A DNA stretch of 62,922 nt from Anaerolineae bacterium (GCA_026991225.1 JALXCB010000080.1:1-62922), one strand, 5' to 3'. Positions 4,823-22,945 are shown, counted from the stretch's first letter. The notes: generated by a model from the letters alone, not told the origin. Program-made: numbers and translations.

Positions 4823-5284
4823 ATGAATCAGACAGAGAAATCCAGCGATCTTAAACGTATTTTTTTTGACAGCCTTGCTCAGCTTGATTTTGTCGACCGT
4901 TTGGACCGCATTTTGGGCGTCTGGTTTCACCGCCGTTGGGGGCGCATTCTGGAACGCTATGGCGTATTGGGTTTGTTCAAAGAGCTGATTCGTACGGCCA
5001 CGGGCCAGAGTTCCTGGCGATTCGCTGTGCCCCGCGATGGCGGGCTTTCGGGATGGGAGATCGAAAAGATGCTGGCCCAATATGGCGTGAGCATCTGGGG
5101 CCGTTGGTTCGACAGCGAAAATCTGTATTTCAACGTCAAGCTCGAGCAGGCCAATTGGGCGGAGTATCTGCTGAAGCGTCGGGGCGTCGCCGTGATGACC
5201 ACGCCTTACAATCCGCTCAACGACCTGTATCCCCAGCGGCATCCGCCGGGAAGCATGCCCACGCCATGGAACGAGCAGAAATAG
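4823..5284 (+). CDS. Hypothetical protein (153 aa)
   Basis: RBS AGGAG 4813-4817, ATG 4823, consensus promoter upstream; no recognisable family. Confidence 0.75.
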   Translation: MNQTEKSSDLKRIFFDSLAQLDFVDRLDRILGVWFHRRWGRILERYGVLGLFKELIRTATGQSSWRFAVPRDGGLSGWEIEKMLAQYGVSIWGRWFDSENLYFNVKLEQANWAEYLLKRRGVAVMTTPYNPLNDLYPQRHPPGSMPTPWNEQK

Positions 5285-5291
5285 CCGGGAA

Positions 5292-5508
5292 GTAACTGTA
5301 AGGTAGTCTGGTTCGGCATCGAAAATGCCTTGCCACGAAGGCTTGAAGGGACGAAGACAATGTAGGTTTGCAGGTTTGCACGTCGCAAGTGGCAAGTCTT
5401 TCTGGCTACGGCGTTTTCACCTGCCACTTGCAACCTGCCACCCGCCACTTTTTCTCCTTCGTGTCGTCGTGTCTTCGTGGTTTTCGACCTTGCTACGTTA
5501 GTAGTTGC
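5292..5508. mobile_element. GTAACT-TIR MITE with 8-bp TSD
   Basis: Ends GTAACTGTAAG / TTAGTAGTTGC; TSD GCCGGGAA at 5284-5291 and 5509-5516; heptamer GCAAGT/GCCACCT cargo. Confidence 0.85.
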
Positions 5509-5516
5509 GCCGGGAA

Positions 5517-5757
5517 ACAAAAAACGCCGTCGTCCCAAGGGACGCGGCGTCGCGCGGTTCCACCCTCGTTGACCGACCGCAGTCGGCCCACTCGACGGAT
5601 TGATAACGGCTTCCAGCCGGGAGAAGTTACTGGCCCGAGGCGTTCCCTTCTCCGCTCCCGAGGGGTTTTCACAGGCCCGATGCGATGGAGGCTTCCAGCC
5701 GCGACCCCCATTCTCTGGCGCTCAGACGACCTGCTACTCGTCTCGGTCGACGCTTTC
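5517..5757 (-). ncRNA. T-box riboswitch, probable Thr (ACC) specifier
   Basis: Minus strand shows AGTA, AGAGA and GGCTGGAA stem-I motifs, GAAA-ACC specifier (5664-5666), antiterminator GGGTGGAACCGCG and a GC terminator hairpin followed by a U-tract. Confidence 0.9.
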
Positions 5758-5779
5758 ATGCTATCACTTGACAGAATCT

Positions 5780-5808
5780 ATTGTAGCACCATGTCCATGC
5801 GCTGTCAA
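5780..5808 (-). promoter_or_regulatory. sigma70 promoter of the T-box leader
   Basis: Minus strand TTGACA (5803-5808), 17 bp, TG-N-TACAAT (5780-5785). Confidence 0.75.
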
Positions 5809-5811
5809 CAG

Positions 5812-5848
5812 AGAACCCCGCGGGCCAGTGGTTGCCTGCGGGGTTCTG
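5812..5848 (-). terminator. Hairpin downstream of tRNA-Val
   Basis: AGAACCCCGCGGGC...GCCTGCGGGGTTCT inverted repeat. Confidence 0.55.
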
Positions 5849-5850
5849 CG

Positions 5851-5927
5851 TGGTGGGCGGTACAAGACTTGAACTTGTGACCTCCACGATGTCAACGTGG
5901 CGCTCTAGCCAACTGAGCTAACCGCCC
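5851..5927 (-). tRNA. tRNA-Val (GAC)
   Basis: GGGCGGTTAGCTCAGTTGG...CCACG-TT-GAC-AT-CGTGG...GTTCAAGT...ACCGCCCACCA; encoded CCA. Confidence 0.97.
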
Positions 5928-5974
5928 TTGCGATTTGAAATTATACCAAAATCGGGCCGCGGATGCCAAATCAT

Positions 5975-6177
5975 GCAGGCGACACGAGCAGCAACTCGCC
6001 CATACCAATGAAAATGCTTCGCGGCCAGGGCGGCGCGGGAAGCCAAGCACGTAATGCGTAATCCGTGATGCGTAAGGTTCTCACGTTTCACGTTTTCACG
6101 CATCACGCCCGTGGCAGACTCGGCCAACGTCGCCTTGGCGATCCTCAATCCTGATCCGAATCCTATTTTCAAAGCAG
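5975..6177 (-). repeat. Dispersed repeat family B (AGGATT hexamers + CGTGAAA/ACGCATT heptamers)
   Basis: Related copies at ~8125-8266, 13108-13265, 22565-22770, 32226-32320, 47923-48123, 49737-49900, 54225-54337, 60815-60958. Confidence 0.8.
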
Positions 6178-6268
6178 AAGAGACCGATGCACTGGTTGCG
6201 CTGAAAATGATCTTGCGATACAATAAGCGTACGTTTCTATCAGAACCAACGTACGCACTGAGGCGATC

Positions 6269-6493
6269 ATGATAAGTCCCACCGAACTCCGGAAAAACAT
6301 TTACAAAATCCTGGATCAGGTGCTCGAAACCGGGCAGCCGGTCGAGATCAAACGACGGGGAAGCGTGCTTCGCATTGTTCCGGCGGAGCCGGTGGACAGA
6401 TTTCAACGACTGGCGTCCCGCCCAGAGATCATCAAAGGCGATCCGGAAGAGCTGGTGCATCTCGAATGGGAGGTCGATCTTGATCTACCTTGA
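6269..6493 (+). CDS. Phd/YefM-family antitoxin
   Basis: SPTELRKNIYKILDQVLETGQPVEIKRRG pattern; overlaps the PIN toxin start. Confidence 0.88.
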   Translation: MISPTELRKNIYKILDQVLETGQPVEIKRRGSVLRIVPAEPVDRFQRLASRPEIIKGDPEELVHLEWEVDLDLP

Positions 6494-6857
6494 CACCCAT
6501 GTCGTGATCTGGCTTTACGCGGGCCTGGAGGAGAAGTTTAGCCAACAAGCCCGGGCCCTCATCAACCAACACGACCTCCTCATCTCCCCCATCGTGCGCC
6601 TGGAGGTGCAATATCTGTATGAAGTCGGCCGCATCACCGTCGATGCTCGGGCCATCATCGATGATTTGGAGGAGCGCATTGGGTTGCAGATCTGTGATGC
6701 GCCCTTTGATCAGGTTGTCTCTCGCTCCATGGCCCTCTCATGGACACGCGACCCTTTCGACCGGTTGATTGTGGCCCAGGCGCAGGTGGGGTGGAAACCG
6801 CTTCTGACCAAAGACGAAACCATCCGAAGCCACTTTCCCAACGCCATCTGGCCATAG
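6480..6857 (+). CDS. vapC: VapC/PIN-domain toxin
   Basis: IYLDTHVVIW, ISPIVRLE, RDPFDRLIVAQA, LLTKD PIN motifs; TTG start at 6480. Confidence 0.9.
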   Translation: MIYLDTHVVIWLYAGLEEKFSQQARALINQHDLLISPIVRLEVQYLYEVGRITVDARAIIDDLEERIGLQICDAPFDQVVSRSMALSWTRDPFDRLIVAQAQVGWKPLLTKDETIRSHFPNAIWP

Positions 6858-11470: not shown

Positions 11471-12904
11471 ATGGCAAATGTCGTTCTCATTGGCGCCGGC
11501 TTTGCCGGGCAGACCGCGGCGCTCTATCTGGGTGACGCTCTGGGCAAAAAGCACAATATCACGGTCATCAACAGGTATGATGTCTTCGGATACACGCCAT
11601 CCTGGGTGTGGGTGGGCGTGGGGCAGATGGAGCCCGAGAAGACCACCTTCAAGCTCAAGCCGGTTTACGACAAATTCCATATCAATTTCGTGCAGGGAAC
11701 CGCGAAATCCATTTATGTGGATGACCAATACGTATTGGTGGACAAGGCTGATGGCAGCGGCGAGACGAAAGTTCCCTACGACTATCTGCTCATCGCCACC
11801 GGCGCCAAGTTGAACTTTGCAGGCACGCCCGGTCTGGGCCCGCACAACGGTTACACCACCTCGATTTGCTCTCTGCCCCACGCCATCGACGCTCGCGACA
11901 GGCTTTTCCAGCTCATGGAGCGCATGGAAAAGGGCGAGAAGGTGAAGATCGTCGTGGGGACCGGGCATCCCGGCGCCACCTGCCAGGGCGCGGCCTTTGA
12001 ATATCTCACCAACATCCACAAGGTGCTGCTGAAGCGGGGGCTGCGCGACAAAGCGGAGTTGCTTTGGCTATCCAACGAGCCCGCGTTGGGCGATTTCGGC
12101 GTGCGGGGCTTGCGCGTGCGCAAGGGTGGACAGATTATTACCAGCGAGGATTTCATCCGCGCCATTTTCGAGCTGTACGACATCAAGTGGCAGGTGCAAA
12201 CGGGCGTGCGCAAAGTGGAGCCTGGGAAAATCTATTGGGAGAATTACGAAGGCGTGGAGGGGGAAACCGAGTTCGATTTCGCCATGCTCATCCCTCAATT
12301 CCTGGGGCCCGGCTTTACCTATTTCGACAAGGACGGGAATGACATTACCGACCAGATGGCCAACAAAGGCGGCTTCGTCCTGGTGGACGCCATCTACGGA
12401 CTGGACTGGGATACGCTGGCTGAAACGCCCGAGGCCTGGCCCGCGGTCTATCAGAACCGCAAGTACAAAAATATCTTCGCCGCGGGCATCGCCTTCGCCC
12501 CGCCCGGCTCCATCTCCCGGCCCTTTGTCAACCCCAACGGCCTTTCCATCACCGCGGCTCCGCCCCGCACAGGCATGATCTCGGGCATTATCGGGCGTAT
12601 CGTCGCCCTGAACATCATCGACCTGGTCAAACGCGGTCGCATGACCCACTCCGAACGCATGACGGAGATGTTCGCGGCCTGTATTGCCTCCATGGGCGAT
12701 TCCCTGTGGGATGGCAGCGCCGCTACGATCGTCATCTATCCCGTCGTACCCGACCCCCGCACCTATCCCAACGAGGAAGGCCGCGACCTCTTCGTCACCG
12801 ACATGGAGATGGGCCTGGCGGGCGCATGGATGAAGCGCATGATCCACACGACATTCATGCACAAACTGCAAGGCCGCATCGGCTGGAAGTTCATCCCCGA
12901 ATAA
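11471..12904 (+). CDS. sqr: Sulfide:quinone oxidoreductase (FAD-dependent)
   Basis: GAGFAG Rossmann motif, [36 protein letters not shown]. Confidence 0.85.
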
Positions 12905-13358: not shown

Positions 13359-13817
13359 ATGAGCAAGAAATCTGTTGTCCTCATCATCCTCCTGCTTTCG
13401 ACAGCGCTGTTGGCCAGCGGATGCCGTAACAAGGGCGTCATCCAGGGCCAACCCGCCGACCCCAACCACCTGCCCGATCTGGCGGGAACTTACGCGGTCA
13501 ATGGTGTGGATCCCGCCGGAGAGAATTACGGCGGCACCCTGACCATCGAGCCGGGCGACGGGCCCAACGCCTACAAACTTCACTGGATCGTCACCGGCGC
13601 CATCCAGGAGGGGGAGGGGCGTATCGAAGGGAACCAGCTTGTTGGTCGGTGGTGGACGCTGGAGGGCATTACCGCGGCCAAAGGGGAATTGAAATACACC
13701 ATCACCACTCTGGGCGAGCTGGATGGCGAGCGCACGGTGGAGGGTTTTGAGCAAACAGGCTGGGAAAAAGCCTTTCCCAATGATGAAAAATGGGGCAGCT
13801 TCAAATTGGGGCATTGA
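13359..13817 (+). CDS. Hypothetical lipoprotein (beta-barrel-like)
   Basis: MSKK + hydrophobic stretch + LASGC lipobox; GTYAVNG...YGGTLTI. Confidence 0.75.
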   Translation: MSKKSVVLIILLLSTALLASGCRNKGVIQGQPADPNHLPDLAGTYAVNGVDPAGENYGGTLTIEPGDGPNAYKLHWIVTGAIQEGEGRIEGNQLVGRWWTLEGITAAKGELKYTITTLGELDGERTVEGFEQTGWEKAFPNDEKWGSFKLGH

Positions 13818-13990: not shown

Positions 13991-14022
13991 AAAAAAGCCC
14001 CCGGCGTCGAACCGGGGGCTTG
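13991..14022 (-). terminator. Rho-independent terminator
   Basis: AAGCCCCCGG...CCGGGGGCTT hairpin with an A/U tract. Confidence 0.75.
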
Positions 14023-14041: not shown

Positions 14042-14425
14042 TTACTTCAACGTCATCAGGTATTTGACCAACTGATTGATCTGCTCGTCCGAGAGTTTCT
14101 CACCGTAGTCCGGGGGCATGGTGCCGGCAGGGAATCCCTCGGTCACATCGGCGTCAGGATTGATGATGGATTCGCGAATGAACTCCTCGCCTTTGCTGGC
14201 AATGCCTGCCAGGGAGGGGCCGACGACGGTCTTGCCGGGCTCGACGGAATGACAGGTGACGCAGCCAGCATTGCCTTCCAGGGTGGTCTGTTCGAACAGG
14301 GCCTTGCCCGCAGCCACGTCGGGGTCGGTGCTGCCGCTGGAAGAGGACTTGTCGCCGCCGCCGCAGGCCGCGACCAGGGCCACGGTCAGGACAAGAATCA
14401 AAACCAGGAATGCCATCTTCTTCAT
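14042..14425 (-). CDS. Monoheme cytochrome c lipoprotein
   Basis: VAAC lipobox, CVTCH, GPSL, distal Met in TMPP. Confidence 0.92.
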   Translation of the reverse strand: MKKMAFLVLILVLTVALVAACGGGDKSSSSGSTDPDVAAGKALFEQTTLEGNAGCVTCHSVEPGKTVVGPSLAGIASKGEEFIRESIINPDADVTEGFPAGTMPPDYGEKLSDEQINQLVKYLMTLK

Positions 14426-14579: not shown

Positions 14580-17003
14580 TCATTTCAGCGTCATCAGGAA
14601 AGCGACCAGGTCATCCAGGTCCTGGGGCGAGAGGCCTTCGGAAATGTAGGCGGGCATCTTGTTGTCGAAGCCCGGCACGATGTAGGCGTCGGGATGGAGG
14701 ATGGATTCGCGGATGTACTCCTCCGCCGCCATGCCCGGCACGCGCGTCGCCGCGCGGGTGGCGATGCCCGCCAGTGAGGGGCCGACCTTGACTTCATCCG
14801 GTTTGAGGGAGTGACACAAGCGGCAGCCCGTGCCTTCGCCGATGCTGCTGGCGAAGAAAATCTCCTTGCCCCGGGCCGGGTCCGCCCCCGCGATCACTGC
14901 ATCCTTGATGATCAGCGGGAATATCTGCCGCCCCTGCAAGGAAATCTCGCCATCGAAAATCACCTGCGGGGGCGATTGCCCGGCCTGATCAGTCAGGGTG
15001 ACGGTGAGATGGTGTTTGCCCGAGGTCGTAGGCAGATATTCATACGCATAAGCAATGCCTTCTTCGCCCTTGCGGGGATACACTTTGTCCACCACGGTCT
15101 CGCCGTCCAACGCGATCACGAGATGGGGATCCGCCGCGTTGGTGAAGTCCAGAGCATCGGCCTCCACCGTCTTCTGCTCGGGCGTCCAGATGGGCACGCC
15201 GCTCTGATGCTTCATCTGCACCTCGATGGCGGCGTCGCCATCCCCGAACGGGGTGTAGGGCGTCAGGCTCAGGCCCACGGTGATGGCCATGAACAGGGCC
15301 AGCAGCGCGAACGCGGGCAGGAGTTTACCCCAATTCGCCCCGCGCAAGGTAAATCGGTAGGAAGTCGCCTCGGTCTGGTGTTCGTCGGCGTGCAGCGTCT
15401 GGGTGAAGTCATTGGGTGGGACCCAATCCATGCTGATGGGCGCGCCTGCGAACCGCCGCTTGAGCTTGGGCTGCCGCTCCCGCTCCAGACGCAGCTCCTC
15501 CCACACATTGCCCTCCCGATTGGCGCAATCTTCGGGCGGGCAGCCGATGACCTGCACCTCGGACGCGCCCGCTTCCAGCGCCCGGGCGATGAGGTTGGGA
15601 TGGGCCATGGCCGCGCAGGTGAGGGGAACGATCTCCACCCGCTGGTCATCCTCCTCCACAGCGCCGGGATGTTCGGAATCGAACATGAATTTCTTGGCCC
15701 CGTGGAAGAGATGGCGCTCGCAGGCGAATACGACCTTGACCGGTTTCTCGCTCGCTTGTGACGCCCGGGCCACGGTGTCCAGCCACAGGGCCTCCACCGG
15801 CTGGTCGCCCAGGGTGAGGGCGTCGGTGGGGCAACTGCCGATACAGACCCCGCAGGAGACGCACATCTTCGGGTTCACCACGGCCACATATTTGTGCGGC
15901 TTGCCGTCGGTGCGCTCCACCATGGTCAGGGCGTTGTAGGGACAATCCTTGGCGCACAGGGTGCAGCCAATGCACTTATCCTCGTGCACGACGATGGGCT
16001 CCAGCCTGGGCCGCACCAGATTCCCCAACAGCCAGGGGATGGCCGTGACCACGCCCAAAACCAGGAAATTCAGCGCCCAGAACAGGGTGGGGTTCATGTG
16101 CAGAGCCGTGGGCAGCGCCGCCAGATACCACAGATCGATGTTCATGCGGCCCGGAAGCTGCACCAAATTGTGCTTGGGCAGCATCCCCACCGGAATCAGA
16201 ATGGCCGCAATCGCCGTGAACCCCAGCGACAGCCAGATCCAATAGCGCGGCGGCAGGATCTTGCCCCGCTGCAACCGCTTGATGTGCAGCCACATGAAGA
16301 GGATGATGGACAGGGGCAGGCCGATATGGATGAAGAACAGGGTGACGAACAGCACCCAGCCCGAGGTTTCACTGATGGGCGTCAGGTGATTGAGGATGAT
16401 GGCGTCGCCATTGGGAAGCCGTCCGATCAGGTCGACGAAAACCTGGTTCAACGCCTGCGCCCGGATATCCGCCACCATCCAGTAGCCTGTCACCCCGGTG
16501 AACCAGATGGCGACGGCCATGACCACGCCCGTGACCCAGGCCAGCCAGCGGGGCCCGCGAAAGCGGTCCATAAAGAACATGCGCCAGGCGTGAAGCAGGG
16601 CCATGATGATGGCCAGGTCCGAGGCGTAGCGGTGCGCCGCCCGGATGACGCGCCCCACCAGACTGCGCTCCACATTGGAGACGGCCAGATAGGAGACGTC
16701 GAATCCGAACTGGTAGAACATGAGCAGGTACACGCCCGTGATGGAGATGAAGATCAACAACCACACGGTGATGGTGCCTGTGTGATACAGAGGATTCAGA
16801 TGCGGATTTTTGGCGATGCGGTTGACCGGTTTCTCCAGCGCCAGAGAGAAGCGCTCCAGCAGATTCAAAAAGCTCCTGACCCAATTCCCCTCCCGTTTGG
16901 GCCAATCCACCGAACGGTGAAAGGCCGACCAACGTCCCGAAAATCGGGGCGATGGCTCGTTTTCAGCGTCTTGCGTTTTTGCTTCCACGTCGAGGTCGGA
17001 CAT
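14580..17003 (-). CDS. Multidomain redox protein: cytochrome b + 2x[4Fe-4S] ferredoxin + MvhD/FlpD-like domain + C-terminal cytochrome c
   Basis: Four heme-b His (AAHRY..LLHAWR; FIHIG..WLHIK); CIGCTLCAKDCP and CVSCGVCIGSCP; FAC..LTC..GCPPEDC; CRLCH. Confidence 0.88.
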   Translation of the reverse strand: MSDLDVEAKTQDAENEPSPRFSGRWSAFHRSVDWPKREGNWVRSFLNLLERFSLALEKPVNRIAKNPHLNPLYHTGTITVWLLIFISITGVYLLMFYQFGFDVSYLAVSNVERSLVGRVIRAAHRYASDLAIIMALLHAWRMFFMDRFRGPRWLAWVTGVVMAVAIWFTGVTGYWMVADIRAQALNQVFVDLIGRLPNGDAIILNHLTPISETSGWVLFVTLFFIHIGLPLSIILFMWLHIKRLQRGKILPPRYWIWLSLGFTAIAAILIPVGMLPKHNLVQLPGRMNIDLWYLAALPTALHMNPTLFWALNFLVLGVVTAIPWLLGNLVRPRLEPIVVHEDKCIGCTLCAKDCPYNALTMVERTDGKPHKYVAVVNPKMCVSCGVCIGSCPTDALTLGDQPVEALWLDTVARASQASEKPVKVVFACERHLFHGAKKFMFDSEHPGAVEEDDQRVEIVPLTCAAMAHPNLIARALEAGASEVQVIGCPPEDCANREGNVWEELRLERERQPKLKRRFAGAPISMDWVPPNDFTQTLHADEHQTEATSYRFTLRGANWGKLLPAFALLALFMAITVGLSLTPYTPFGDGDAAIEVQMKHQSGVPIWTPEQKTVEADALDFTNAADPHLVIALDGETVVDKVYPRKGEEGIAYAYEYLPTTSGKHHLTVTLTDQAGQSPPQVIFDGEISLQGRQIFPLIIKDAVIAGADPARGKEIFFASSIGEGTGCRLCHSLKPDEVKVGPSLAGIATRAATRVPGMAAEEYIRESILHPDAYIVPGFDNKMPAYISEGLSPQDLDDLVAFLMTLK

Positions 17004-17092: not shown

Positions 17093-18757
17093 TTAGCCGC
17101 CGAAGATATTGGTGATGGGCGGCGAGGTGAACTGCGCCGTGGAGATCTGATAAACAAGCTGCGGGCCGTAGGCAATGACCAGCAGGATGACGACGCCCAC
17201 CAGCCAGGGAACCCAGCGATCCAGCCAGCGGGGCGTGGTCTGCGGGTCCAGCAACGATTCGGCCACCGGCGGTTCCGGCTCCTCGCTGAGCTTCTTCTTG
17301 GTGACCAGCGAGCCGATCATCACCGCCACGAACAGATAGACGGAGATGAGCAGGATGAAGCCGCCGATGCCCACGCGCAACAGGTGGCCTGCCCATTCTT
17401 CGGGAATGTAGGGAGCCGCGCCCAGAGGCGTGCGCCGTGGCGCGCCCAGCAGGCCCACCACGTGCATGGCATTGGAGAAGATGGTCATGCCGATGAACCA
17501 CAGCCACACCTGGATCACGGCGCACTTCTTGCACCAAAGCGGTTTCTTGGTGAGATAGGGAACCAGCCAGTAGAGGATGCCCATGAACGTCAGGGTGACG
17601 CCGGTGGCGACGGTGAGATGGAAGTGGCCGGGAACCCAGGCGGTGTTGTGCACCACCAGGTTGATGTTGTAAGAGGCGTTGATCAACCCGCCGATGCCGC
17701 CGAAGAAGAAGAGGATGCCCGCCAGCAACTGCGCCAGGACGCTGGGATCATTCCAGGGCAGTTTCGTAATCCAGCCCAGCAGCCCCTTGCCCCCGCGATT
17801 GCGGCCCGCGTTTTCCAGCGACGCCACCACAGTGAAGGCCGTAAGCATGGAAGGGAAGAAGACGGAGTAGGTGAGCAGGGAGTGGACCATCTTCCAGCCT
17901 TCTGGCACGCCGGGATCCACATATTGATGGTGGAAGCCCACAGGCACGGAGAGCAGCAGGAAGAGCCAGAAGGAAAAACGGGCCAGCGAATCGCTGAAGA
18001 GCTTGCCCCCGGCCTGGCGGGGCAGGAACGCATACCAGGACATGTAGGCGGGCAGGAGCCAGAAGTAGACCAGGGGATGGCCCGTCCACCAGAAGTAGGT
18101 GCGGTCGAGCTGCGGGTCCAGCCCGGCGCGCAGCCCCAGGGACCAGGGGATCAGGTCCACCAGCAGCTCCGCGGCCGCGCCCAGGGTGGCCACCTGCCAC
18201 ATAACCATGGTGATCAGCGACATGAAGGAAATGAGCGGGGTGCGGACGCCGGGATTTTCCTTGCGCCATTGATAATACGTGAGGTAAAACCCGTAGCCCT
18301 CGATCCAGCTCCCCACCACCACCAGGGTAACGCCGATATAGAAGGCGGGATGCGCCTTCATGGGGGGATAGAAGGTGTAGAGCACGCTGGCCTGGTTCAG
18401 CAGGATGGGCACAGCCGCGATCAGCAACCCCACCACCATCATCCAGAAACCGAGGGCGTTGAGTTTGGGATAGCGCAGGGGGCGCTTGAGGCCGTAGATG
18501 ATGGTGAAGGTGAGGAAGCCAGTAATGAAGAATGTGGTCCAGATGAGGGCGTTGAGCACGCCATGCAGCGTCAGCCCTTCATAATAGGAATGGAAGATGG
18601 GATTCAGGAACTTGTCATAGAAGTTCCAGCCCGCATGTTCCATGGCCTGGAAGGGCCCAAACAGGCTGCCAATCGAAAGCGCCGCAATGGCAAAGATGAA
18701 ATGCCAGCCAATGAAGCGTTTCTCCTTGGCTGTCAGTTGATAGGTGTTCGCAGTCAT
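17093..18757 (-). CDS. cbaA: ba3-type (B-family) cytochrome c oxidase subunit I
   Basis: LTLHGVLNA, WWTGHPLVYFWLLPAY (His-Tyr), GFHHQY, PGHFHL. Confidence 0.95.
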   Translation of the reverse strand: MTANTYQLTAKEKRFIGWHFIFAIAALSIGSLFGPFQAMEHAGWNFYDKFLNPIFHSYYEGLTLHGVLNALIWTTFFITGFLTFTIIYGLKRPLRYPKLNALGFWMMVVGLLIAAVPILLNQASVLYTFYPPMKAHPAFYIGVTLVVVGSWIEGYGFYLTYYQWRKENPGVRTPLISFMSLITMVMWQVATLGAAAELLVDLIPWSLGLRAGLDPQLDRTYFWWTGHPLVYFWLLPAYMSWYAFLPRQAGGKLFSDSLARFSFWLFLLLSVPVGFHHQYVDPGVPEGWKMVHSLLTYSVFFPSMLTAFTVVASLENAGRNRGGKGLLGWITKLPWNDPSVLAQLLAGILFFFGGIGGLINASYNINLVVHNTAWVPGHFHLTVATGVTLTFMGILYWLVPYLTKKPLWCKKCAVIQVWLWFIGMTIFSNAMHVVGLLGAPRRTPLGAAPYIPEEWAGHLLRVGIGGFILLISVYLFVAVMIGSLVTKKKLSEEPEPPVAESLLDPQTTPRWLDRWVPWLVGVVILLVIAYGPQLVYQISTAQFTSPPITNIFGG

Positions 18758-18808
18758 AAATCTCTCCTCGAAAAGTGCAAACCAATGGATGTGCAAACCA
18801 ACGGACGA

Positions 18809-19300
18809 TTACGGAACGACGATGACCTTGCCGTACATGGTGGCGTGGGCGATGCCGCAGTATTCCGTGCAGATGAAATCATATTCGCCCGGCTCGTCGA
18901 ACTTCACTGCCAGGCTGGAGACCTGGCCCGGAACGATCTGCATGTTCACGTTGGTGTTTTGCAGCTTGAAGCCGTGTTGAACGTCCCGGCTGGTGACATA
19001 GAATTTGACAATCGAACCGGCGGGAACCGTGATCTCGCGCGGATTGAAAGACCAGGTTTGGGCGACGATGTAAGCTTCGTAGCGTTTGGGGGCCACCTCT
19101 TTCAGGCCCGGTTCCGCGAAGGTGCCGCTGGCCTGCAAGTCGGTGGGATTCACTCGGGCCACTGGATCGGGCACGCGCACGCCAAAGGAGAGGCCCGCCA
19201 CGGTGATGGCGCCAAAGAAGACGGCAAGCATCAGAATGCTGACAATAATCCAGGTCTTCTCGTACGGATCAATGTGCATGGATTCGTGTTTGTTAGCCAT
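18809..19300 (-). CDS. cbaB: ba3-type cytochrome c oxidase subunit II (CuA)
   Basis: Single TM, DVQHGF, CTEYCGIAHATM. Confidence 0.95.
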   Translation of the reverse strand: MANKHESMHIDPYEKTWIIVSILMLAVFFGAITVAGLSFGVRVPDPVARVNPTDLQASGTFAEPGLKEVAPKRYEAYIVAQTWSFNPREITVPAGSIVKFYVTSRDVQHGFKLQNTNVNMQIVPGQVSSLAVKFDEPGEYDFICTEYCGIAHATMYGKVIVVP

Positions 19301-19448
19301 AGAACGTCACTCCTCGGGAAAGCATGATCAGGTAAACGGAGCCCCAGAGAATGATGATGAGCAGGAAGAAGATAGCCAGAATCACGGCCGCCCCCTTCGG
19401 GTGCTCGAACTGTTCATTCCCGCTGTCGGGCAATTTCTCGTTGGACAT
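19293..19448 (-). CDS. cbaD: ba3-type oxidase subunit IIa (51 aa; not in the ORF track)
   Basis: MSNEK...HPKGAAVILAIFFLLIIILWGSVYLIMLSRG resembles Thermus CbaD; RBS GGAGG; overlaps the cbaB start. Confidence 0.85.
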   Translation of the reverse strand: MSNEKLPDSGNEQFEHPKGAAVILAIFFLLIIILWGSVYLIMLSRGVTFYG

Positions 19449-19481: not shown

Positions 19482-19817
19482 TTATAAGACCTCGATGAGT
19501 CGATCGATGGTGATATCGGTGATCTGTCGTCTTTTGTAGAGGATAACTTTGTTTTCGTCTAAAATGACGAATAGAATCCTGTCTGGAATAAGATCGTTGT
19601 CATGGGCTGCAATCCGTTCCAGATCCGCCATCATCTCTTCAGCGTAGTGATAGTCGGCAATAAGCACATCCGGGTGAGCCTCCTCCATCATCCCTTTGGC
19701 TTCCGCCCAGCTTTCGGCGGAGCCGATGATCTCGACATCCGCGGGGCGATCCTCCAGAACGCGCACAAGGCCGTCGTGAAACATGCCGCGACTGACCAGA
19801 AGGACCCGAATGCTCAT
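19482..19817 (-). CDS. Stand-alone degenerate receiver-domain protein
   Basis: IRVLLV...GL..VLE...VEIIG...PDVLIAD; lacks the acidic pocket pair and any output domain. Confidence 0.7.
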   Translation of the reverse strand: MSIRVLLVSRGMFHDGLVRVLEDRPADVEIIGSAESWAEAKGMMEEAHPDVLIADYHYAEEMMADLERIAAHDNDLIPDRILFVILDENKVILYKRRQITDITIDRLIEVL

Positions 19818-19909
19818 ACTCCCATTATAAAAGGAAACAACGCCCCACGTCGTCACCCCGCCCGACACAATCCCCTACCCCCACGGATACAAATTTCCAC
19901 CCAAATGGA

Positions 19910-20566
19910 TTACGCCATTGGGCTATTGCCCGTCAATCCGTGCCGTTCGGCCCAGGCCGCGGCCTGGGCCCGGCTGCGCAACCCCAGCTTGTCCAGGATA
20001 TGGCGCAAATGGGCCTTGACCGTGTGCGGGGAGATGGCCAGGGCCGCTCCGATCTCTTTGTTACTCATGCCACTGGCTACATAGCGCAGGATATCTCGCT
20101 CCCGATCGGTGAGGATATCCTCGGGCCGCTGCCGCTTGCCCTGGGAGAGGGCCACGAATTCATCCAGCAGTTTGGCCGACATGGCGGGCGAAATAACCGC
20201 CTCCCCGCGGCGGATGCGATGAATGGCGTCCACTAGTTCGTCGCTGGTGCTGCTCTTGAGCAGATAGCCGCGCACGCCCGCCTGCACCGCCCGAAACAGC
20301 GTCTCCCGATCCTCCGACACCGTCAGCAACAGGATGGTCAGGTCAGGGTGGCGCTCCTTCAGGCGACTGGCGGTCTCGATGCCATCCATGCCGGGCATGT
20401 TTACGTCCAGCACGACGACATCGGGCCGGTAATTATGGAAGGAGGCCAGCACCTCCTGGCCGCTACGCAGACTGGCCACGACTTCGATATCCTCCTCATC
20501 GTCCAGCAGCCGCGTCAGGCCTTCGCGAAAGAGATGATGGTCATCCGCCAGCAATACGCGAATCAT
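19910..20566 (-). CDS. NarL/LuxR-family response regulator
   Basis: LADDH, VVLDVNMPGMDG, GYLLK, LTDRE..GMSNKEI..TVKAH. Confidence 0.95.
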   Translation of the reverse strand: MIRVLLADDHHLFREGLTRLLDDEEDIEVVASLRSGQEVLASFHNYRPDVVVLDVNMPGMDGIETASRLKERHPDLTILLLTVSEDRETLFRAVQAGVRGYLLKSSTSDELVDAIHRIRRGEAVISPAMSAKLLDEFVALSQGKRQRPEDILTDRERDILRYVASGMSNKEIGAALAISPHTVKAHLRHILDKLGLRSRAQAAAWAERHGLTGNSPMA

Positions 20567-20569
20567 CGC

Positions 20570-22525
20570 TTAGCGTCCCTCCTCCACAAGATTGGGCGTG
20601 GTTTCTCGCGAGACGTCAATCAACTCGTAGGAGGCTTCGGCCGGCACGGGCGCGGTGACGATAATGGCGGCGCCTCGGTCCGGGCCCGTCATCACCGAAA
20701 GCTGGCCCCCGATGCTTTCCGCCCGCTCCCGCATGGAAGTCAATCCAAAACCTGATGTGCGGTCGTCCGTCTGGCTGGATGTGGCGGGGAACCCAATGCC
20801 GTTATCCGAGACGCGCAGTTCCAGCCATCCTTCCGCCAGGGAAAGCTGCACATCCACGTGGTCGGCGCGAGCGTGTTTGCGCACGTTGGTCAGGGCTTCC
20901 TGGGCGATGCGCAAGAGCTGGAGGGAGACTTCGGCGGGGGCCATGAGCTCTTCGGGATGCGCGGTGAAGGTCACGTCGATGCCGGTCTGGAATGCGAAGT
21001 CTTCCACATAATTCTCCAGGTTCTCGGCCAGACGGGTGGGATCATCCCAGCGCAGGCGCAGTCCCTCGATGGCTTCGCGTACGTCCATGTAGGCGGAGCG
21101 CACCACCTGACGCATTTCGGGCAGCTCTCGCTCGACTTTCTCATATTGCCCTTTCTGCAAAAGGCGGTCCACGCGTTCGAGCTGAAAGCCCAGATAGCCC
21201 AACGTCTGGGCCAGACCATCGTGGAATTCCCGGGCCAGGCGATAGCGCTCGCGCAGCATGGCCGTCTGCTGCAATTCCTGGGAGAGCTGGGCGTTGCGCA
21301 GGGCCAGCGCAATCTGATGGGCGAAGGTCTGGAGCAGATCCGCATGTTGGGGATTGAGCCCCTGCGGGCGCTTTGTGCCCAGGAAAAGCGCGCCGAAGGC
21401 TTCGCCTTCGCTGAGCAACGGCAGGGCCGCGGCGCTGCGCAGATCATGCGACTGCCGGGCGGGCAGCGCCCGGATGATGATGGATTGGTCGGCGAAAGCC
21501 TGTTGTGCGAGTTGTTGGGCGAAGCCGAACCGCGCTGAAGAAAAATCGCCCAGACCCTGCTGGGAAAGACAAACCCACTGGTCTAACGCCTCGTCATAAA
21601 GGAAGATGGCCCCCGCCTGGGCCTTCCAGCCCATGATCGCGGTCTGGAGAGTTTGCGAGGCCAGTTCGGACAGGGATTTGTGGGTGCGAGAGGCGTCGTC
21701 CAGGGAGTGTAGGGCCTCCATCTGGCGCTCGCGGGATCGCAGACTATCGACGGCGAAGGCGATGACGCCGCCCAGGATGTTGAGCAGATGGGCCTGCTCT
21801 TCCTTGGGCCCGTCGGCCGACGGGAAATAGGCGGTGAGGATGCCGATGCGCTCCTGGTCGGTGTGGATGGGCAGACACATGAGGGACTGCACGCCATCCT
21901 GTCGGGCTGCGTCGGCCACGCCAACGAACAGGGGACAATCGCCATCTACATGGGCGTGCAGCGTGCTGCAAGTGCGACACCGCTCTGCGGCCACGCCTTC
22001 CCCCAGATAATTGCGAAAGGCCTGGGCGTAATCGTCGCTCAAGCCCCAGGCCATGGCCAGATTCAAGGTCTGTTGGTCTTCATCGAAGGTGACCAGGGTG
22101 GCGGCCTTGGCGCCGACCAGTTCGGTGGGAGCCTGCACTGCGACCTTGTACACCTCATCTTCATTGGGAGCCGAGGCGATGTACTGGCCCAGACGATCCA
22201 GCGCCAGCAGTTTCTTGTGGCTGTCCTCCAATTCGGCGAAAGCCTTGCGCAACTCCTGTTCGGTCTCCGATTGTTTGGCCGCGTTGCGGGCGATGTACGT
22301 CAATCCCCACCATGCCACAATACTCCCGGTGACGGCGTAGACCAGCACCTCCAGCCACCAGCCCACCGGCGAGTTGCGGGGTCGGATCACCGTCTGCACG
22401 AAGAGCTGATGGAGCGCAGCCAGAGCCAGCACGATCATGGGCGCGTTCCATCGCAACAGCCGCAGTTGCTTGTGCAATGGCTGTTGGCGGAGATGCTGCC
22501 AGAGACTGGCGATCTTCCCTTGCAT
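20570..22525 (-). CDS. Membrane GAF-GAF sensor histidine kinase (HisKA_3)
   Basis: 2 TM, two GAF domains, ERYRLAREFHDGLAQ, QEALTNVRKHA, DNGIGF, GFGL..MRERA; start codon uncertain. Confidence 0.9.
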   Translation of the reverse strand: MQGKIASLWQHLRQQPLHKQLRLLRWNAPMIVLALAALHQLFVQTVIRPRNSPVGWWLEVLVYAVTGSIVAWWGLTYIARNAAKQSETEQELRKAFAELEDSHKKLLALDRLGQYIASAPNEDEVYKVAVQAPTELVGAKAATLVTFDEDQQTLNLAMAWGLSDDYAQAFRNYLGEGVAAERCRTCSTLHAHVDGDCPLFVGVADAARQDGVQSLMCLPIHTDQERIGILTAYFPSADGPKEEQAHLLNILGGVIAFAVDSLRSRERQMEALHSLDDASRTHKSLSELASQTLQTAIMGWKAQAGAIFLYDEALDQWVCLSQQGLGDFSSARFGFAQQLAQQAFADQSIIIRALPARQSHDLRSAAALPLLSEGEAFGALFLGTKRPQGLNPQHADLLQTFAHQIALALRNAQLSQELQQTAMLRERYRLAREFHDGLAQTLGYLGFQLERVDRLLQKGQYEKVERELPEMRQVVRSAYMDVREAIEGLRLRWDDPTRLAENLENYVEDFAFQTGIDVTFTAHPEELMAPAEVSLQLLRIAQEALTNVRKHARADHVDVQLSLAEGWLELRVSDNGIGFPATSSQTDDRTSGFGLTSMRERAESIGGQLSVMTGPDRGAAIIVTAPVPAEASYELIDVSRETTPNLVEEGR

Positions 22526-22945
22526 GTCCAAAACTTTACTAAAATCGCGCTTTTCTGTCAATTGCTGTTCCGAAAATAGCGTTGCGTTGGTTTGTAAAAG
22601 CAACTCGAAACCCGCGTTGGGCGAGTCTGCAACGGGCGTAAAACGTGAAAACGTGAAACGCCATGTCCTCACGCATCACGTTTCACTCGTCATGTCTTCG
22701 GCTCCCCGCGCGGCCCTGGCCGCGAGACGTTTTCATCGGTATGGGCGAGCGGCCGCGCGTGGCGCCTGCTATGAAAATAGATTTGGTGGACCGGTACACC
22801 AGTAGACCAGGAAGGCGGCCCGGTTTTTCTGGTTTCCTGGTTTACCGGTTTACGGGGCTACATAGCCCCCCCATTTTCACCGCCTCGGCGCGGACTTGTC
22901 CCCGGCATTTTCCCAAAAATCCCCACTCTGCGGTAGACTAACCCC

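Follow-up and report, generated by a model that had tools for sequence, protein, structure and literature searches.

How does a haem-copper oxygen reductase obtain its electrons when the gene that follows its own encodes a cytochrome b without a Rieske partner? The question is raised by a stretch of DNA of 62,922 nucleotides (nt) from an Anaerolineae bacterium (GCA_026991225.1 JALXCB010000080.1:1-62922), the whole of which is called the window here. In it, the operon of a ba3-type oxidase is followed by a single gene in which a cytochrome b, two [4Fe-4S] clusters, an MvhD-like domain and a cytochrome c are fused. Quinol oxidation of the complex III type is thought to depend on a Rieske protein, and a preliminary description of the locus, made from the sequence alone, had proposed a Rieske-free, single-chain substitute for complex III. 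The explanation that fits best overall, to which we give about even chances, is that the fusion is a dedicated electron-input subunit of the adjacent ba3-type oxygen reductase and not a general replacement for complex III. That it serves the electron supply of the oxidase in one form or another is very probable. The fusion gene and its modules, numbered in amino acids (aa), are as follows.

14580..17003, minus strand: whole fusion gene, 807 aa plus stop (cytochrome b / 2x[4Fe-4S] / MvhD-like / seventh transmembrane helix / beta-sandwich / cytochrome c)
15999..16826, minus strand: cytochrome b membrane domain, helices A-F, residues about 60-335, with haem ligands His124/His138/His226/His240 and a Qo-like loop with Asp290 (Pfam; fold match to QcrB)
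15813..15995, minus strand: cytoplasmic ferredoxin domain, residues 337-397, with two CxxCxxCxxxCP motifs for 2x[4Fe-4S] (Pfam; HdrA ferredoxin match)
15399..15746, minus strand: cytoplasmic MvhD/FlpD-like domain, residues about 420-535, with Cys 428/463/488/493 and a presumed [2Fe-2S] cluster (Pfam FlpD; 9sw2_D)
15267..15332, minus strand: seventh transmembrane helix, residues 558-579 (hydropathy and AlphaFold2 model)
14889..15263, minus strand: periplasmic all-beta domain, residues 581-705 (model)
14583..14879, minus strand: class I cytochrome c domain, residues 709-807, with CxxCH at 727-731 (Pfam; structural matches)

The minus-strand frame from 17003 to 14580 consists of 807 codons and is free of internal stops; a plus-strand reading of 14580-17003 contains stops and was rejected. 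All four recognised modules exceed the curated Pfam cut-offs, namely Cytochrome_B at residues 65-244 (58.5 bits vs 27.2), Fer4 in two stretches at 337-397 (44.5 vs 21.1), FlpD/MvhD at 453-533 (40.7 vs 22.3) and Cytochrom_C at 710-807 (34.1 vs 21.3). In an alignment of 89 homologous sequences, which also served for the AlphaFold2 model, the haem ligands His124, His138, His226 and His240 are invariant, as are Cys344/347/350/354 with the following Pro, Cys381/387/391 and the MvhD-domain residues Cys428/463/488/493. Cys384, Cys727, Cys730 and His731 are nearly invariant (at least 90%). The Pfam modules, the conservation of ligands and the transmembrane helix at 558-579 bear out the architecture of one 807-aa chain that had been described, and the preliminary description is right in every item that could be checked.

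A chain of such unusual composition might be a chimeric open reading frame (ORF) produced by misassembly or by a sequencing frameshift, and an assembly error had been named beforehand as a result that would undo the proposal. A word-indexed protein search with 8000 candidates returned 594 matches at E <=1e-3. The best 120 of these 594, from Caldilineales, Anaerolineales, other Chloroflexota and Acidimicrobiia, are 716-838 aa long and each span at least 90% of the query; the Fe-S and MvhD domains occur in every one of them, and the cytochrome b domain is missing from a single one. When one genome per species was scanned, relatives of the fusion were confirmed in 523 of 559 candidate stretches, and a CxxCH domain stands at the end of 73 of 75 locus ORFs. 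Because the full-length architecture recurs in the best 120 of 594 matches and in 523 species genomes, it is neither a product of chance nor of misassembly, and the artefact can for practical purposes be dismissed. In a profile search of 1.84 billion cluster representatives (50% identity), 16839 matches were found at E <=1e-3, 3962 at 1e-10 and 591 at 1e-30, giving a family of at least 591 clusters at E <=1e-30. Where the best 120 matches bear public names, these are "hydrogenase iron-sulfur subunit" or "cytochrome b N-terminal domain-containing protein"; the former is misleading.

The membrane part of the fusion has the fold of a complete cytochrome b. The AlphaFold2 model (predicted local distance difference test score, pLDDT, 88.8; predicted template modelling score, pTM, 0.83) has helices A at 71-94, B at 115-144, C at 151-176, D at 216-244, E at 253-269 and F at 305-330, followed by the seventh at 558-579. 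Foldseek ranks highest the full-length cytochromes b that belong to bc1 and bcc complexes (290-330 aligned columns, probability 1.0), with 182-200 aligned columns for cytochrome b6 alone. With VIA-align, model residues 65-336 were superposed on residues 33-361 of Mycobacterium smegmatis QcrB (Z 22.0, root-mean-square deviation (rmsd) 3.3 A, 260 aligned), an alignment that spans helices A-F including the ef loop. Several alignments with mitochondrial cytochromes b reach model residues 584-590, opposite about residue 343 of the matched chain. Judged from the first and last aligned residues only, the seventh helix probably corresponds to helix G of a cytochrome b, and given this equivalence the Fe-S domains would form an insertion of 220 residues in the cytoplasmic F-G loop. 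According to positive-inside loops and helix count, the N-terminus and the Fe-S domains lie inside and the cytochrome c lies outside; the D-E loop, with 5 Lys/Arg and zero acidic residues, fits the cytochrome b topology. Hydropathy, the AlphaFold2 model and the fold alignment, taken together as a check of topology, lead to the same arrangement of Fe-S domains and cytochrome c.

Conservation was examined in 149 family representatives at <=50% identity. The haem ligands His124, His138, His226 and His240 are kept in 135/135, 135/135, 137/138 and 137/138 of them. A hidden Markov model (HMM) built from the family's membrane domain matches canonical cytochromes b at 14 loci of related genomes, with the match split into an A-D and an E-F segment at 12, and in 6 canonical cytochromes b it aligns Asp290 with the Glu of the PEWY motif. 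Asp290 is kept in 135 of 142 representatives and replaced by Asn in 5; Gly173 is kept in 136/137, Tyr174 in 121/137 and Asp179 in 134/139. Since these four residues are retained across the family, the outer pocket of the cytochrome b seems to be maintained under constraint in a variant form. The Qo motif reads Ile-Asp-Leu-Trp here, and in the family position 1 is Leu or Ile and position 3 is Pro, Trp or Leu. On the inner side, no Qi-type His/Asp pattern was recognisable in our reading of the alignment; Arg243, Arg246 and Pro251 are conserved there. Two further residues were considered and rejected as key residues: His74, aligned with a b6 Cys that we take to be the haem-cn Cys, is kept in 65/135 representatives and in this clade only, and His599 is invariant in this clade yet present in 66/127 across the family.

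On the opposite end of the chain, the C-terminal 233 residues were folded alone with a pLDDT of 89.6. The beta-sandwich has generic matches only among the 50 matches listed (best Z 7.4, rmsd 2.9 A, 88 aligned). A degenerate Rieske fold was considered for it and set aside, as no Rieske protein occurs among the 50 matches listed, although such a listing does not exclude a distant resemblance. Two structures tie as the best match of the cytochrome c head at Z 12.9: 1w2l_A, a domain of caa3 subunit II (rmsd 2.1 A, 91 aligned, 35% identity), and 7zs0_A, a dihaem cytochrome c of Kuenenia (rmsd 2.2 A, 96 aligned, 34% identity). In caa3 oxidases the cytochrome c domain feeds CuA.

The genes surrounding the fusion point to the same partner. 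The oxidase operon and the features that adjoin it are listed below.

17093..18796, minus strand: cbaA, subunit I of a B-family haem-copper oxygen reductase (COX1 330.9 bits; active-site His...Tyr motif)
18809..19300, minus strand: cbaB, subunit II with a CuA site (COX2/cupredoxin; Cys-x-Glu-x-Cys-x3-His-x2-Met motif)
19293..19448, minus strand: CbaD-like single-helix ORF of 51 aa (8-nt overlap with the start of cbaB)
14042..14425, minus strand: cytochrome c lipoprotein of 127 aa with a lipobox, paralogous to the cytochrome c head of the fusion (101 residues at 44% identity)
13995..14021, both strands: terminator-like GC-rich hairpin at the end of the oxidase operon, from a consensus scan only, which is no evidence of function
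13359..13817, plus strand: conserved lipoprotein of about 141-152 aa, convergent, candidate companion of the fusion/oxidase system (neighbourhood recurrence)

The CbaD-like gene, cbaB, cbaA, the fusion and the cytochrome c lipoprotein are all co-oriented, so that the placement of the fusion after cbaDBA and before a cytochrome c lipoprotein was read correctly at the outset. The label of the 51-aa ORF as CbaD-like is a putative one, drawn only from its size, its position and one hydrophobic helix. CbaA carries a His-Pro-x-Val-Tyr active-site motif and a His-His motif, and from such motifs, not from a tree, the enzyme is provisionally assigned to the B-family (ba3) oxygen reductases. As the CuA ligands are present in subunit II, the oxidase is a cytochrome c oxidase. 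The hairpin sits between two convergent genes, those of the cytochrome c lipoprotein and of the lipoprotein without a Pfam family.

For a survey of the neighbourhood, all ORFs within 8 kb of the fusion were clustered in 80 loci and the window (81 in total). Of the 70 loci in which 1800 nt or more of upstream sequence is available, 68 have a co-oriented COX1 directly before the fusion, the exceptions being L084 and L085, and of the 65 with 2600 nt or more, 64 have COX2; the co-occurrence with haem-copper oxidases on which the earlier proposal turned is thus found in nearly all of these loci. SCO1/SenC copper chaperones precede the COX genes in 47/58 loci. Downstream sequence reaches 1500 nt or more in 63 loci; in 30 of these the fusion is followed by a stand-alone cytochrome c gene, and in 54 the Pfam-less lipoprotein (about 141 aa) is present, on the same strand in 25 and on the opposite strand in 29. 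In the window this lipoprotein has a weak match to the LIC10280 family (E 6.8e-9, below cut-off) and the automatic atlas name 'lipocalin family' (score 0.91), and it may be a further subunit. No Rieske gene was found among the conserved neighbours of the 81 loci. Three neighbours occur less regularly: an Rrf2 regulator (32 loci), a flavoprotein resembling sulfide:quinone reductase (21 loci) and cytochrome bd (17 loci).

In the window, this flavoprotein of 21 loci is a 477-aa Pyr_redox_2 protein at 11471-12904 on the plus strand, with a weak NCBIfam match to type III sulfide:quinone reductase. Other genes of the window recur in the survey as well. Upstream of cbaD on the minus strand are a LuxR-type response regulator at 19910-20566 (kept in 24 loci) and a double-GAF histidine kinase at 20570-22672 (kept in 18), which may regulate the oxidase operon. 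A 128-aa ORF at 19482-19868, also on the minus strand, belongs to no Pfam family, appears receiver-like by eye and is kept in 20 loci.

Could the fusion then stand in for complex III in the whole respiratory chain, as one protein without a Rieske subunit? At the level of the genome (3.87 Mb, 201 contigs, 97.3% complete) some observations speak for this. The Rieske domain PF00355 is found neither in the window, as had been noted, nor anywhere else in the genome, and Pfam recognises no cytochrome b in the genome other than the fusion. A cytochrome b that works with a haem-copper oxidase and no Rieske protein presumably has a precedent in Sulfolobus SoxABCD, and there is a weak match to the SoxC model. 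However, a search for alternative complex III (ACIII) revealed a complete set on another contig (C130, locus L008:6738-14220, plus strand), comprising a multihaem protein resembling ActA, one of 991 aa resembling ActB, NrfD/ActC, ActD, a cytochrome c and an ORF of 406 aa. It stands beside another oxidase, with COX1 at 4945-6534 and a COX2-cytochrome c fusion at 14766-16769 of the locus; in all, the genome has four COX1 genes above cut-off. The same locus contains, at L008:721-3315, an 864-aa multihaem cytochrome with MtrC-like domain matches.

The wider class gives the same answer. In 401 sampled genomes, for which a completeness of at least 90% was requested, 95 matched the fusion at E <=1e-20; 65 carriers, in which the match covers the cytochrome b/Fe-S part, were kept, and 30, in which it covers the cytochrome c or ferredoxin part only, were dropped. 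These 65 are related genomes and a sample, to which no statistic is attached. ActD is present in 32 of them, and the other 33 all have at least one further canonical cytochrome b; in Pfam searches of the same class, such further cytochromes b score 1e-34 to 1e-56 and fusion-type matches 1e-9 to 1e-17. Each of the 65 sampled carriers thus has a candidate quinol:cytochrome c oxidoreductase besides the fusion. Rieske domains, counted across the class, were given up as a marker of bc complexes, 341 of the 401 genomes having matches, mostly in oxygenase-like frames of 330-400 aa; ActD and PF00033 were used in its place.

Moreover, in one family of the class (genomes G226 and G384, 2/2 examined) a variant of the fusion without the cytochrome c head ends a longer operon, in the order COX2, COX1, cytochrome c, a 678-aa GltD-like flavoprotein, b6, subunit IV, Rieske, multihaem cytochrome c, fusion (L107, G226:C60, 928-11098; L108, G384:C23). 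The GltD-like flavoprotein consists of Fer4_20, Pyr_redox_2 and 2 Fer4 domains, and the operon presumably resembles the Rieske/cytochrome b complexes with NAD(P) oxidoreductase subunits that have been proposed for anammox bacteria. Sharing an operon with a Rieske/cytochrome b complex in both genomes is a further argument against the idea that the fusion replaces complex III for the whole chain, and the strict pairing of the family with one particular oxidase points to a private supply line. In the earlier proposal of a complex III substitute, therefore, the absence of Rieske from operon and genome and the linkage to the oxidase have stood; the substitution itself is opposed by the complete ACIII and by the 65 of 65 carriers with ACIII or a canonical cytochrome b, and in its strong form we consider it very improbable.

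What remains is a supply line of one oxidase, and the parts of the fusion suggest how it would work. Its anatomy would be that of a seven-helix cytochrome b of the b6 plus subunit IV type, with two b haems and an outer Qo-like pocket with Asp290. Menaquinol would be oxidised at the Qo-like site; one electron would travel via the cytochrome c head, or via the paralogous lipoprotein cytochrome c, to CuA and O2, and the b haems and Fe-S tail would join the Qo-like site to a cytoplasmic redox partner. A private electron input is preferred because of the constrained pocket, the three-cluster chain, the beta-sandwich, the caa3-like cytochrome c and the near-obligate pairing with a CuA oxidase. The conserved pocket argues for the involvement of quinone, and it is reasonably likely that quinol is a substrate there. 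Towards the cytoplasm, the link could serve as a low-potential outlet, as in a bc1-like bifurcation without Rieske, or as a second inlet; true bifurcation into the Fe-S tail is rather doubtful.

The cytoplasmic tail itself is strongly conserved. For none of the eight ferredoxin Cys does the count fall below 138 of 142-145 representatives, and the four MvhD Cys are kept in 139/140, 138/142, 138/144 and 125/143. Fusion residues 338-515 match positions 573-736 of the NCBIfam HdrA2 model (79 bits vs a cut-off of 1100), a region that comprises the C-terminal ferredoxin domain and the fused MvhD; with the family profile, too, ferredoxin domains of HdrA and a solved chain of MvhD, 9sw2_D (E 7.5e-8), were matched. 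The fusion carries the only FlpD domain of the genome. A partner of the Mvh/Hdr kind was sought for this domain in the genome, and none was found. The only [NiFe] hydrogenase lies on contig C154 (locus L092:3920-8513, plus strand), with Fer4_22, NAD_binding_1/DHODB, Oxidored_q6, the large subunit and a HycI protease, a set that we take to be group-3b-like. The role of MvhD as a link from hydrogenase or Flx to HdrA, which had been brought in as established background, is thus without a counterpart here.

Several points weigh against an electron-input subunit that draws on quinol. There is no Rieske-like first acceptor in the fusion, and the Pro and Trp of PEWY are not conserved in the family. 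The cytochrome c head is found in only 19 of 108 complete family representatives and so lies outside the conserved core; parsimony on a midpoint-rooted FastTree tree, with 21 truncated rows treated as unknown, gives about three changes in its presence. Since the organism already has an ACIII, its quinol:cytochrome c activity does not depend on the fusion, and the occurrence of the fusion alongside a true Rieske/cytochrome b complex in G226 and G384 is hard to reconcile with simple replacement. On the cytoplasmic side, no gene for a redox partner or donor is conserved beside the fusion in the 81 loci, HdrA was not found in this genome, where the fusion itself is the best match of the HdrA2 model, and neither was an Mvh-type hydrogenase. 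Ferredoxin-type clusters are usually of low potential, and therefore an outward flow from the cytoplasm to the oxidase would be thermodynamically easier.

This last point leads to the alternative of a wire from the cytoplasm to the oxidase that bypasses the quinone pool. Reductant, either NAD(P)H via a flavoprotein or ferredoxin, would deliver electrons to the MvhD-like cluster, from where they would run through [2Fe-2S] -> 2x[4Fe-4S] -> haem bH -> haem bL -> cytochrome c -> CuA -> O2, and the function would be the scavenging of O2 (or NO) in largely anaerobic or microaerobic Anaerolineae. Such a wire would account for a three-cluster chain ending in an MvhD-type adaptor that is kept family-wide, and, judging from the known potentials of clusters of the ferredoxin type, of b haems and of cytochrome c, the redox drop would be downhill in the outward direction. 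It would also suit the cytochrome bd (17 loci) and Rrf2 (32 loci) neighbours, which are typical of low-oxygen regulons, and the GltD-like NAD(P)H flavoprotein with Fe-S domains in the G226/G384 operon. However, Asp290, Gly173, Tyr174, Asp179 and the cd/ef architecture would then be needless, a donor gene is conserved beside the fusion in none of the 81 loci, and the genome is without an HdrA or Mvh partner. The wire is regarded as rather unlikely.

With flow in the opposite direction, the fusion would join the ba3 oxidase in an enzyme that bifurcates the electrons of quinol independently of a Rieske protein. One electron of menaquinol would go downhill via cytochrome c and CuA to O2, and this O2 branch would drive the second electron through bL, bH and the three clusters to a low-potential cytoplasmic acceptor, which may be NAD(P)+, ferredoxin or a disulfide; in the G226/G384 lineages the role of acceptor module would fall to the GltD-like NAD(P)H flavoprotein. 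If this were true, O2 respiration would be used directly for making low-potential reductant. We regard it as a speculative proposal with a small chance of being right.

It is also conceivable that the fusion oxidises quinol for the oxidase and that its Fe-S tail lies off the main path, acting as a redox, O2 or NO sensor, as a gate or as a capacitor that tunes the oxidase. No cytoplasmic partner could be identified, and many loci have genes for an Rrf2-type regulator and two-component systems in their vicinity, both of which would fit. Nevertheless, three clusters with all 12 Cys kept over at least 591 clusters of sequences (50% identity) look like a transfer chain, and known Fe-S sensors usually contain a single cluster, so a sensory tail appears improbable. 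Among these readings, the dedicated electron-input subunit remains our preferred one.

The family extends beyond oxygen reductases of the kind seen in the window. A distant paralogue clade, with 30-38% identity and about 700 aa, has no cytochrome c, and its members lie within 5 kb of a COX1 of 572-597 aa in 6 of 6 loci (L124-L129, from G103, G275, G265, G043, G320 and G123). Between the paralogue and COX1 a copper P-type ATPase is encoded in 5 of the 6 loci and a DsbD_2 protein in 3; CtaA occurs in 1 of 6. The COX1 proteins of this clade have Gln at the position where the enzyme of the window has the cross-link Tyr. Enzymes that are Tyr-less, B-like and CtaA-linked are called eNOR by Murali et al. 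2024 (PMC11214002), and such Tyr-less enzymes are described for Magnetospirillum by Degli Esposti et al. 2019 (PMC6431628). By these sequence features, the distant-paralogue loci look like eNOR-type nitric oxide reductase clusters.

Taken together, a large conserved family is recognised in which the Qo architecture is kept, Rieske is absent, an Fe-S chain is added and a tie to haem-copper O2 and NO reductases exists. Its characterisation would establish a new way of feeding terminal oxidases, perhaps with a connection to redox carriers of the cytoplasm. Many ba3-type and Tyr-less (eNOR-like) enzymes of Chloroflexota and Acidimicrobiia would gain the electron donor that is still missing for them, and the result would bear on the evolution of bc complexes from dehydrogenase membrane anchors. 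The fusion family is a good target for biochemistry.

In print, the fusion has already been noted in passing, and the family is uncharacterised and widespread. In Kao & Hunte 2014 (PMC4122944), a 'PDWF-FeS' clade is reported that consists of two cytochromes b fused to 4Fe-4S and MvhD domains, one of Magnetospirillum magneticum AMB-1, the other of Turneriella parva, with no Rieske nearby and no function given. By its description, this is the same kind of fusion, likewise without Rieske in its cluster; its motif is PDWF, and that of the fusion here is Ile-Asp-Leu-Trp. The text available of that paper makes no mention of a cytochrome c head, of oxidase linkage or of Chloroflexota. One protein with b6 and FlpD domains is listed, with nothing more, in the appendix of a 2022 survey as far as its text is accessible (Schwartz 2022, PMC8756737), and the fusion as a partner of such enzymes is not mentioned in the main text, as available, of Murali et al. 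2024 (PMC11214002). Targeted literature searches, with subscription journals and supplements outside their coverage, gave no further account of the family.

By fold and sequence, the closest family of the fusion is that of the Rieske/cytochrome b complexes (b6 and subunit IV of b6f, QcrB of the actinobacterial bcc complex, and bc1). Like them, the fusion has four His in helices B and D, 14 residues apart, the same fold in helices A-F and probably G, and an acidic residue at PEWY position 2. Unlike them, it has no Rieske partner, by which that family is defined, it does not keep the PEWY Pro and Trp, and it carries a 220-residue cytoplasmic Fe-S insertion as well as a beta-sandwich and a cytochrome c after the last helix. 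From ACIII it differs in having none of ActB, ActC and ActD. The nearest functional analogy, as we see it, is SoxC of Sulfolobus SoxABCD (NCBIfam has the names 'cyt_b_SoxC' and 'quin_ox_SoxB'), which is homologous to cytochrome b and works for a haem-copper oxidase in a complex that has no Rieske. SoxC is not known to carry an Fe-S tail or a cytochrome c, and no CuA is known in subunit II of the SoxABCD oxidase; with 48.4 bits against a cut-off of 740 in the NCBIfam SoxC model ('cyt_b_SoxC'), the fusion is not a member.

On the cytoplasmic side, QmoC, HdrE/HdrD, NarI/NarH and type-B succinate:quinone reductases presumably follow the same logic, in which an outer quinone site, two stacked b haems and cytoplasmic clusters are combined. 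The b subunits of the QmoC/HdrE/NarI/SdhC type have NarI/HdrE or SdhC folds and not that of a bc-type cytochrome b, and none of these enzymes is known to have a cytochrome c head or a tie to a haem-copper oxidase. The ferredoxin and MvhD part is shared with HdrA2, an HdrA-MvhD fusion, and with methanogen MvhD. The four Cys that define an MvhD/FlpD domain are present, and a bridge from Mvh or Flx to HdrA is not; unlike HdrA2, the fusion contains no FAD/thioredoxin-reductase core and no HdrBC. On the periplasmic side, the head is structurally like the cytochrome c domain of caa3 subunit II (1w2l). In caa3 that domain is joined to subunit II of the oxidase, whereas here it is joined to a cytochrome b protein.

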